DNA of 56,045 bases, counting the filler, from Catajapyx aquilonaris (taxonomy: Eukaryota), in the NCBI GenBank assembly GCA_000934665.2. It is 2 parts of 2 records of this genome, joined end to end, with 100 filler letters (N's around TTAATTAATTAA, not from the genome) between each part and the next. Parts side by side here need not be neighbours in the genome. Positions count along the whole stretch, not along the records: positions 1 to 27,954 come from JYFJ02005001.1; 1 more part is not named here. One strand, given 5' to 3'. The notes under the pieces were generated by a model, which was not told the origin of the DNA, did no database searches, and saw only the letters and a list, made by a program, of their open reading frames with translations. Positions 16,110-17,865 of this stretch are shown one piece after another. The first letter of the stretch is position 1, and every line of letters begins with the position of its first letter. Position numbers and translations under genes: made by a program.

Positions 16110-17865
16110 TCACCTTATTGTTTCCACATCACTTGCCTTTTTCAACGTCTGGTTGATCTGCTGCCGGTGTATCTCTGTGAAGGCCTGCAGGTCACGGACC
16201 AGATGTCGCAGGTCACCGTTGACCTGGGGCAGGATGTAGGAGAAGAAGATCTCCATTTGCAGGGCCCAGTTCTTGTTGCGTATCTCTCCGTCGTGATTGA
16301 TCGGCTGGATAATGGCAGCGATGTAAGGGTCCATCTCGCCTGACTGGAGGGCCAGTCGGAAGTCACTCAGGTTGTCGTAGTCTCGAGGGTTCAGACGGTC
16401 ACGGTACTTCAGGATGTCGTTTATCATCTGGGTATATACGCGTATAGAAAGGTAATTATCCTTTATCATGATGATGGTGGTGACTTACCATGAGGAGGTT
16501 GGACTTTAGTTTTGCAGCAGCAATGAGGCTTTGGATACCTAGTCCTGGGCTTCGTTTGTTGAGAGAAACTGGTGCATCAGGACCTTCCTCATTCAGTGAT
16601 GACAGATGGTGAACAGTGACATGTCGGTCCGCAGTGTCACCACTGTGCTGGTCGTCATCGTGATGGATGGTTACACCTTTTGGATCACCCTGGTTCATGG
16701 GTTCAGCATGATGGATGGTGACACCTTCAGCATGATGCACGGTGACATGTGGGACGTCCCGTTTGTTCAGCGCTTCAGCATGGTGAATAGTGACACCTTT
16801 TGGAAGTCCTTCAGCATGATGGATGGTGACACCAGGGACTTCTCTCTTCGCCAGTCCAGCGTGAGGCAGAGTGACGCCTTTGGGGAGCCCTTCTGCATGG
16901 TGCACAGTGACATGGGGGACGTCCCGTTTGATCAGAGCTTCAGAATGGTGAATAGTGACACCGTTTGGGAGCCCTTCAGCATGATGCACAGTGACATGTG
17001 GGACGTCTCTCTTCTCTAGTCCAGAAAGATGGTGAATAGTGACACCTTTGGGGAGCCCCTCAGCATGGTGGACAGTGACATGTGGGACGTCCCGTTTGTT
17101 TAGAGCTTCAGAATGGTGAATAGTGACACCTTTTGGGAGTCCTTCAGCATGATGGATGGTGACACCAGGGACTTCTCTCTTCTCCAGTCCAGCGTGAGGC
17201 AGAGTGACACCTTTGGGGAGCCCCTCAGCATGGTGCACAGTGACATGTGGGACGTCCCGTTTGTTCAGAGCTTCCGAATGGTGAATAGTGACACCGTTTG
17301 GGAGCCCTTCAGCATGATGCACAGTGACATGTGGGACGTCCCGTTTGTTCAGAGCTTCAGCATGGTGAATAGTGACACCTTTTGGGAGTCCTTCAGCATG
17401 ATGGATGGTGACACCAGGGACTTCTCTCTTCTCCAGTCCAGCGTGAGGCAGAGTGACGCCTTTTGGGAGCCCTTCAGCATGATGCACAGTCACATGCGGT
17501 ACATCTCGTTTGTTCAGACCAGAAATGTGATGGACAGTGGGAAGGCCTTCAGCATGATGCACAGTGACACCCTGAGGAAGTCCCTCTTTCTGCATCGCTT
17601 CAGCATGATGAATGGTGACACCCGCGTCACCAAGGGCCTCTGCATGATGGAGAGTGACCCCAGGCACATTGCCCTTGTCGAGACGAGTCAAACGAGAGAC
17701 ATGTTTGCTCACTCGATCTGCCCTTACGACAGCTATGCGACGTAGACCTTCAACATTTACGACACACTGCAAAGGACAAGATGATGGAGTGCTTATGAAA
17801 CATCACAGGTACAATATGCTTACCAGAAATATCAGCACTGCGAGGACACCAAATGAGGAACTCAT
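16110..17865 (-). CDS. Secreted His-rich polyprotein/peptide precursor with 11 KR sites, ~545 aa (exons 17865-17824, 17766-16489, 16427-16110)
   Basis: Exons 1+2 give the signal peptide MSSSFGVLAVLIFLCVVNVEG. Phase-0 GT-AG introns of 57 and 61 nt. Repeats such as KR-DVPHVTVHHAEGLPKGVTLPHAGLE-KR. Exon 3 is a non-repetitive helical-looking domain; the exact 3' end is less certain. Confidence 0.8.

Follow-up and report, generated by a model that had tools for sequence, protein, structure and literature searches.

Known multi-peptide precursors combine a signal peptide, tandem near-identical peptides, a basic site at each boundary and a distinct extra product. For instance, the portion of PMC8423362 available to us describes Drosophila Baramicin A (BaraA) as cleaved at furin sites into three tandem 23-residue IM10-like peptides together with IM22 and IM24, and gives its peptides as not overtly cationic, with net charges of +1.1 to -0.9. 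Another example is the ant hymenoptaecin precursor, in which seven repeated domains are flanked by processing sites (excerpt of PMC3415428). In fungi, the Kex2-processed repeat proteins (KEPs) include Rep1 of Ustilago maydis, whose peptides structure the hyphal surface (passages of PMC6339444). Here we describe a gene of Catajapyx aquilonaris (NCBI GenBank assembly GCA_000934665.2) that lies at 17865-16110 on the minus strand of a 56,045-nucleotide stretch of DNA, hereafter the window, in which two genomic parts are joined by 100 filler letters and positions 1 to 27,954 come from JYFJ02005001.1. Its predicted product matches the same general plan.

With slightly less than even confidence, we read this product as a precursor that a convertase would split into several peptides, a 'protein operon' coding for His-based effectors specific to the lineage. 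After loss of the signal peptide, most likely by a cut behind residue 21, a subtilisin-like proprotein convertase would cut after all eleven L-x-K-R sites, and a carboxypeptidase would then trim K-R. The products would be a basic 78-residue N-terminal piece, nine His-rich 25/26-mers of three types, a 67-residue acidic peptide and a 126-residue, largely helical protein. Each short peptide would carry two beta-prone VT(V/I)HH cores joined by a GLPKG turn, and its charge, Zn/Cu binding and self-association would switch between an acidic environment of the granule or gut type and a neutral one. The role would most likely be that of a lineage-specific secreted effector set, serving either host defense or as self-assembling secretion material; a metal-binding, antimicrobial, adhesive or venom role is what we infer from composition. 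If the protein is processed, one gene would supply, in a fixed ratio, the nine His-rich pieces along with the acidic one and the helical C-terminal protein, none of them in a described family.

The likeness to BaraA lies in a secreted precursor whose tandem near-identical peptides (about 23 residues in BaraA) stand between basic sites beside larger distinct products. In the available text on BaraA, the cleavage sites are RXRR furin sites, the repeats number three and the peptides are not His-rich, whereas the sites here are L-x-K-R and the repeats number nine; in addition, the protein described here has no family match in Pfam. BaraA processing and immune induction were shown by mass spectrometry according to the same text, whereas the present protein is known from its sequence alone. 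Hymenopteran precursors (ant hymenoptaecin, bee apidaecin) share a signal peptide, a pro-sequence and six or seven repeats, each with a dibasic site (excerpt of PMC3415428). They differ in their EAEP spacers, RR sites and Gly- or Pro-rich units, whereas the present protein lacks a spacer, uses KR as its site, has units rich in His and Val and adds a 126-residue non-repetitive C-terminal domain. KEPs resemble the predicted protein in joining a signal peptide to tandem peptide cores that end in a KR-type Kex2 site, and the Rep1 peptides are a self-assembling surface material rather than signals (passages of PMC6339444). They belong, however, to a different kingdom and show no sequence relation, the IFT20, ankyrin-kinase and DUF229 genes marking the window as animal. 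Leu occurs at P4 of Kex2 sites.

Gene model and protein anatomy

The DNA evidence is strong that 17865-16110 (-) is a real three-exon gene, whose predicted product is a secreted 545-residue pre-pro-protein. Its features are as follows.

17926-17933 (-): TATA-like box TATAAGAA, named by consensus resemblance only; about 34 nucleotides (nt) upstream of CATTTT and 61 nt upstream of the ATG
17824-17865 (-): exon 1, ATG plus 13 codons, translating into the first two thirds of the putative signal peptide; GTAAGC donor directly after
17767-17823 (-): intron 1, 57 nt, phase 0, GTAAGC...TTGCAG, G+C 0.404
16489-17766 (-): exon 2, 426 codons, running from the end of the putative signal peptide through the N-terminal piece and all repeats to residue 21 of the C-terminal domain; marked by third-position bias and by the ratio of replacement to synonymous differences (pN/pS)
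17512-17745 (-): N-terminal piece of 78 residues (residues 22-99), in which a basic stretch of 26 residues precedes 3.5 degenerate His cores without KR; computed isoelectric point (pI) 10.2
16759-17511 (-): first KR site and nine repeat units, residues 100-350; three sequence types in three copies each
16558-16758 (-): acidic His-rich piece of 67 residues (residues 351-417), with a computed charge of -9.4 at pH 7.4 and four degenerate cores
16552-16557 (-): eleventh KR site (L-N-K-R), joining the acidic piece to the C-terminal domain; Leu and Arg codons differ from those of the repeat sites
16489-16551 (-): first 21 residues of the C-terminal domain, at the end of exon 2
16428-16488 (-): intron 2, 61 nt, phase 0, GTAAGT...CCCAG, G+C 0.377
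16110-16427 (-): exon 3, last 105 residues of the C-terminal domain plus TGA; G+C 0.528, G+C at third codon positions (GC3) 0.726

Spliced from 17865-17824, 17766-16489 and 16427-16110, the product comes to 545 residues, with the coding part of exon 3 at 16427..16113 and the TGA stop at 16112..16110. Both introns are short, run from GT to AG and lie in phase 0. An initiator-like CATTTT sequence stands downstream of the TATA-like box, and there is an A at -3 of the ATG. Translation, the GTAAGC donor and hydropathy all bear out the 14-codon first exon that the initial annotation had proposed as the source of a signal-like N-terminus. Judged by hydropathy and the -3/-1 rule alone, residues 1-21 form a signal-like segment with a hydrophobic core at residues 5-17 (9-residue Kyte-Doolittle means up to 3.5), and V-E-G, which fits the -3/-1 rule, suggests a cut after residue 21. 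Retention of intron 2 would extend the frame by 10 codons, five consecutive His included, to a stop, and the exon-3 part would be lost.

The repeat unit is built on a 25/26-residue piece in which two VT(V/I/L)(H/P)H cores are linked by GLP(K/N)G and the end reads L-x-K-R. In order, the nine pieces measure 25, 26, 26, 25, 26, 26, 26, 25 and 26 residues (27/28 per unit with KR); the first is identical to the fourth and the second to the ninth, and the whole protein holds 25 cores. The repeat region has 372 residues, 58 of them His (15.6%); in the pieces, His accounts for 15-19% and Gly for 8-12%. A single Cys occurs, at position 15 within the signal region. Over 16724..17622, Tandem Repeats Finder detects periodicities of 84, 165, 249 and 333 nt, and the repeat is not due to chance by this measure; because the 333-nt period has 90% matches and 0 indels, part of the array is young. 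The terminal units are degenerate. The C-terminal domain is non-repetitive and counts 126 residues, 21 from exon 2 and 105 from exon 3. The initial annotation had described a signal peptide followed by KR-punctuated repeats, nine KR-delimited His-rich peptides, a longer acidic and His-rich peptide, a non-repetitive C-terminal domain of about 125 residues, no Gly before KR and no Cys in the repeats; these sequence-level statements all hold, with 11 of 11 boundaries reading L-x-K-R, and the coordinates alone are slightly refined.

Exon 2 occupies a stop-to-stop frame of 448 codons, among the longest of the 74 frames of at least 110 codons in the window. G+C is 0.525 in exon 2 and 0.528 in exon 3, whereas the introns have 0.404 and 0.377 and the flanks 0.39 and 0.32. 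In exon 3, the GC3 of 0.726 compares with 0.29 at second codon positions. Differences between equal-length repeat units fall on codon positions 1, 2 and 3 of the minus-strand frame in numbers of 44, 31 and 133. Summed over 18 equal-length unit pairs, which share ancestry and are not independent, pS is 0.289 and pN 0.087, giving a pN/pS of 0.30. This third-position bias and the low pN/pS indicate purifying selection on the frame, in an unambiguous direction. Comparisons between units of the same type give synonymous and replacement changes of 8 and 0 (units 1 and 4), 7 and 1 (units 1 and 8), 4 and 1 (units 4 and 8) and 2 and 0 (units 2 and 9). Two open frames on the plus strand, at 16603..17019 and 17104..17745, were rejected as mirror frames because the variable sites sit on their first codon positions.

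Gene model, splicing and cleavage are all predicted from genomic DNA, which counts against processing of the precursor and in favor of a very improbable alternative in which the model is wrong or the locus silent, either as an unexpressed recent repeat expansion or with an exon 3 foreign to the gene. The protein would end after 10 codons if intron 2 were retained, the canonical AATAAA was not found in the 400 nt read after the stop codon, and annotation is of no help, since the proteins of two neighboring single-exon frames are not in the protein collection; these points fit such an error. The third-position bias and the pN/pS of 0.30, however, require selection on the frame, and an ATG, a signal-like N-terminus, two phase-0 introns, a TATA-like box, the G+C of the exons and the GC3 of exon 3 would not occur jointly by chance. 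Five sequencing runs from two studies match the locus; none is listed as RNA, and the four full-length ones are recorded as DNA. Run X5, of unstated type, spans a single 114-nt stretch within the repeats; contigs of X5 and of the DNA-type run X1 carry no splice joints, a result that does not speak against expression or splicing.

Dibasic sites and histidine chemistry

The eleven KR sites have their K at residues 100, 127, 155, 183, 210, 238, 266, 294, 321, 349 and 418. Leu stands at P4 in all eleven, and P1' is occupied by D (seven sites), E (three) or S (one). KR is preceded by N, E, I or A and in none of the 11 cases by G, so that an amidation signal is absent. The motif is spelled with CTG, CTA or CTC for Leu, AAA or AAG for Lys and CGG, CGA or AGA for Arg. 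At the first site, a K-R-D-V-P-H stretch shows four synonymous and zero replacement changes, and the last site keeps the motif between a heavily diverged unit and the unrelated C-terminal domain. Because L-x-K-R survives codon changes, also at the first and last sites with their diverged flanks, the KR sites look selected rather than incidental, in the pattern expected for selection on processing sites.

The same sites could belong to a neuropeptide-like precursor, in which non-amidated 25/26-mers would be made in neuroendocrine or gut endocrine cells, released by a PC2-type convertase and directed at receptors. A signal peptide followed by KR-delimited tandem copies is the standard plan of a neuropeptide precursor, and non-amidated multi-peptide 'NPLP' precursors exist in insects. 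By a rule that Veenstra is said to have set out in 2000, K-R without Arg at P4 is a PC2-type rather than a furin-type site. We nevertheless regard this explanation as quite unlikely: receptor-coupled neuropeptides are usually conserved across arthropods, whereas no search returned a relative; an amidation signal is absent; the peptides are long, His-rich and of low complexity; and the array is young, with its 333-nt period 90% identical. Nor did Pfam thresholds or protein searches reveal a conserved motif or family profile of the arthropod neuropeptide families. Since no relative was found, a fast-evolving effector fits better than a conserved hormone.

What such effectors might do is suggested by their charge. 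The nine pieces have computed pI values of 6.1-6.75, with 4-5 His and 3-4 acidic residues each, and in every piece His adjoin Asp or Glu. Computed net charges at pH 7.4 lie between about -1 and -3, with -1.9 for five pieces, and at pH 5.5 between about +1.4 and +2.5; a short peptide would pass from about -2 to about +1.6, with the calculated switch near pH 6.3. Given this switch, the peptides would respond to pH or metal ions; by well-known histidine chemistry, either would be expected to alter charge, binding or assembly. To our knowledge, few arthropod effectors are Cys-free peptides whose charge is negative at neutral pH and turns positive near pH 6. Average masses predicted for the pieces come to 2552.9, 2743.0 and 2781.0 Da for one piece each, 2610.9 and 2727.0 Da for two copies each, and 2780.1 Da for two different sequences; the acidic piece would weigh 7245.6 Da, the C-terminal protein 14548.6 Da and the uncleaved protein without its signal about 57 kDa.

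Other secreted, Cys-free peptides depend on His as well, including the histatins, tenecin 3, holotricin 3 and armadillidin, whose activity is pH- or metal-dependent. Defense peptides of the histatin and tenecin type are cationic and mostly Gly-rich products of single-peptide genes, whereas the present pieces contain 8-12% Gly, are anionic at pH 7.4 and number nine per gene. An identity with the Gly/His-rich insect antifungals of the tenecin 3 and holotricin 3 type, which have a glycine-dominated composition, was rejected because Gly is limited to 8-12% of the pieces. Histatin and tenecin 3 are both named in the available part of PMC2853521.

Several further observations weigh against a convertase-processed effector precursor. 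The peptides are anionic at neutral pH, unlike most antimicrobial peptides. Alternate half-units read K-G where KR would stand, so the KR pair may be a by-product of repeat history that began as a repeat variant. The furin form R-X-(K/R)-R occurs in none of the eleven sites, and the furin consensus is unmet because Arg is absent from P4 throughout. K-R sites of this kind, lacking Arg at P4, are characteristic of PC2-type processing in neuroendocrine cells and suit a fat-body immune gene less. A kappa-B-like palindrome, GGGAATTCC, does lie at 17919..17911 (-), between the TATA-like box and the ATG, but was rejected as evidence because the window holds 14 such motifs against 22 expected. Finally, the whole repeat region is modeled as one beta-helix, which, if real, would favor an intact protein.

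Predicted structure and a possible uncleaved repeat protein

AlphaFold2 was run without an alignment and on the exon products separately. For the repeat exon (P0001), the model has a mean predicted local distance difference test score (pLDDT) of 52.8, with no residue at 90, and a predicted template modeling score (pTM) of 0.55. It contains 24 strands, placed on nearly every His core and amounting to two per KR-bounded unit. The K of 10 of the 11 KR sites falls in inter-strand segments with pLDDT below 50, and the eleventh lies two residues beyond such a segment. By VIA-align, an aligner independent of Foldseek, the model resembles right-handed beta-helices: 163 chains reach Z of at least 8, essentially all of the 50 rows listed are beta-helices, and the best, 3zpp_A, has Z 17.8 with a root-mean-square deviation of 4.2 A over 304 residues. 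Foldseek against the PDB gave no match to the repeat model at E <= 0.001 (0 of 15 rows with E up to 10). AlphaFold2 is described as folding repeat sequences into confident but unrealistic beta-solenoids (portion of PMC11795689). Because of this repeat artifact and the low confidence, the model is taken to suggest only that the His cores are beta-prone and that the KR sites lie in predicted loops.

These predictions bear on the main rival, a serious one that the initial annotation did not consider and that we hold to be somewhat unlikely: an uncleaved secreted beta-rich His repeat protein, whose 27/28-residue units would stack as a solenoid or sheet with His ladders. Such a protein would be structural, adhesive, cuticle-associated or metal-storing, and hardened or switched by Zn/Cu, pH or quinone cross-linking; its degenerate end repeats would act as caps, its helical C-terminal domain as an assembly module and its KR pairs as surface charges. 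The 24 predicted strands, the pTM of 0.55 and the beta-helix likeness (Z 17.8 to 3zpp_A) agree with this, as do a unit of 27/28 residues, which is within the range of one beta-helix rung, and the degeneracy of the terminal units. His-rich cross-linked cuticle components are also known, from Bombyx (excerpt of PMC8062583). On the other side stand the mean pLDDT of 52.8, with no residue reaching 90, and the lack of any Foldseek match at E <= 0.001; a Pfam scan with the products of exons 2 and 3 (E up to 1) revealed no chitin-binding or other structural-protein domain. A purely structural role leaves unexplained why L-x-K-R is strict at 11 of 11 boundaries, the C-terminal junction included. Should the protein stay intact, it would be a candidate member of a class about which little is known, the His-rich arthropod secretions that are hardened by metal or cross-linked. 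Whichever holds, the locus presents a young tandem array, 90% identical at the 333-nt period, that is kept under strong purifying selection.

The Lepidoptera offer a point of comparison for such an intact protein. His-rich cuticular proteins such as BmorCPR152 are secreted and very His-rich, with the His used in quinone cross-linking (excerpt of PMC8062583). In that excerpt, however, they carry the Rebers-Riddiford consensus and HHHH/XHHH runs, whereas here His sits in a fixed VT(V/I)HH context and makes up 15.6% of the repeat region. An identity as a CPR cuticular protein was rejected because the Pfam scan (E up to 1) found no Rebers-Riddiford domain.

For the exon 3 product (P0002), the mean pLDDT is 59.7 and the model has one confident long helix at residues 54-104. 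The initial annotation had spoken of a helical effector released with the peptides; what stands of this is one long helix in a single low-confidence model. A two-copy complex prediction of the exon-3 product scored 0.01, which gives no verdict for or against self-association.

Returning to the processed precursor, the combined features would also allow a more specific proposal, which we put forward as unlikely: an animal counterpart of the fungal KEPs, in which nine copies of a hitherto unknown His-rich strand-turn-strand peptide would flip charge near pH 6.3, undergo reversible Zn/Cu self-assembly or exert a pH-gated antimicrobial or structural action, and be secreted together with an acidic His-rich peptide and a helical protein that is itself an orphan. 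If true, this would be a new arthropod peptide family with a built-in pH/metal switch.

Relatives and neighboring genes

The peptides were not recognizable to the initial annotation as any known family, and Pfam, protein, PDB-sequence and motif searches agree. In a Pfam scan of the exon 2 and exon 3 products no family reached threshold, the best two being DUFs at 20.5 and 18 bits against cut-offs of 27. When the repeat exon was compared with word-indexed proteins of similar, lesser and greater length, about 8000 word-sharing candidates were scored each time and none reached E <= 0.001. An exhaustive phmmer search of exon 3 against 1.84 billion representatives returned two matches (E 2.3e-07 and 3.7e-07) to long tandem-repeat proteins, which were rejected as tandem-repeat artifacts because one weak match, of 25-28 bits over 32-41 residues, had been summed over 5-7 repeats and the two aligned with different query regions. 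No match came from the PDB sequence searches. In the ESM Atlas, exon 3 led only to bacterial hypothetical or type IV secretion system (T4SS) clusters, with recognition below the mark, and the repeats to no usable match; five peptide motifs searched in the literature appeared in no paper found, and tblastn within the window found no second copy. The lack of a relative is nonetheless weak evidence, because the exact proteins of the two neighboring single-exon frames are missing from the same collection; 'orphan' here means that nothing was found in the libraries searched, whose coverage of this organism or its close kin is not demonstrated.

The other genes of the window give no functional clue. 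Upstream of the repeat-precursor gene lies an IFT20 gene at 20283-20876 (-), and a DUF229 gene is also present in the window. A convergent frame at 14249-14638 (+) begins with a signal-like M-S-W-S-L-M-L-L-V-L-V and continues as a very acidic, Glu/Gln/Ser-rich sequence without a Pfam match; it may be a second small secreted-protein gene. Just downstream of the precursor's stop codon, 15700-16030 is AT-rich, with many short direct repeats of the 'aaaattaagc' and 'aaataagca' kind, and loose contig ends of DNA run X1 fall at 16029 and 16061. Together, the loose ends and the short repeats suggest the border of a repeated element. The frames at 52907-53596 were rejected as genes, being mechanical open frames of a simple-sequence array (repeats of the SYLTS-, LPNLF- and KERLG- type) in which several frames stay open on either strand.

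What looks like a cluster of divergent ionotropic-receptor-like genes consists of four long paralogous frames at 28003-29499 (-), 29879-31966 (+), 34905-36632 (-) and 53663-55540 (-), all with transmembrane segments and apparently without introns; two of the four have weak Lig_chan matches (E 4e-4 and 6e-5), below the Pfam cut-off. The frame at 29879-31966 (+) ends in a Pro/Ser/Asp-rich tandem repeat. An N run at about 27950-28006 abuts the 3' end of the receptor-like frame at 28003-29499, and this gene is therefore incomplete in the window. Further along, 39372-41421 (-) and 43454-46162 (-) are tandem paralogous genes in which ankyrin repeats are followed by a protein kinase domain and further ankyrin repeats.

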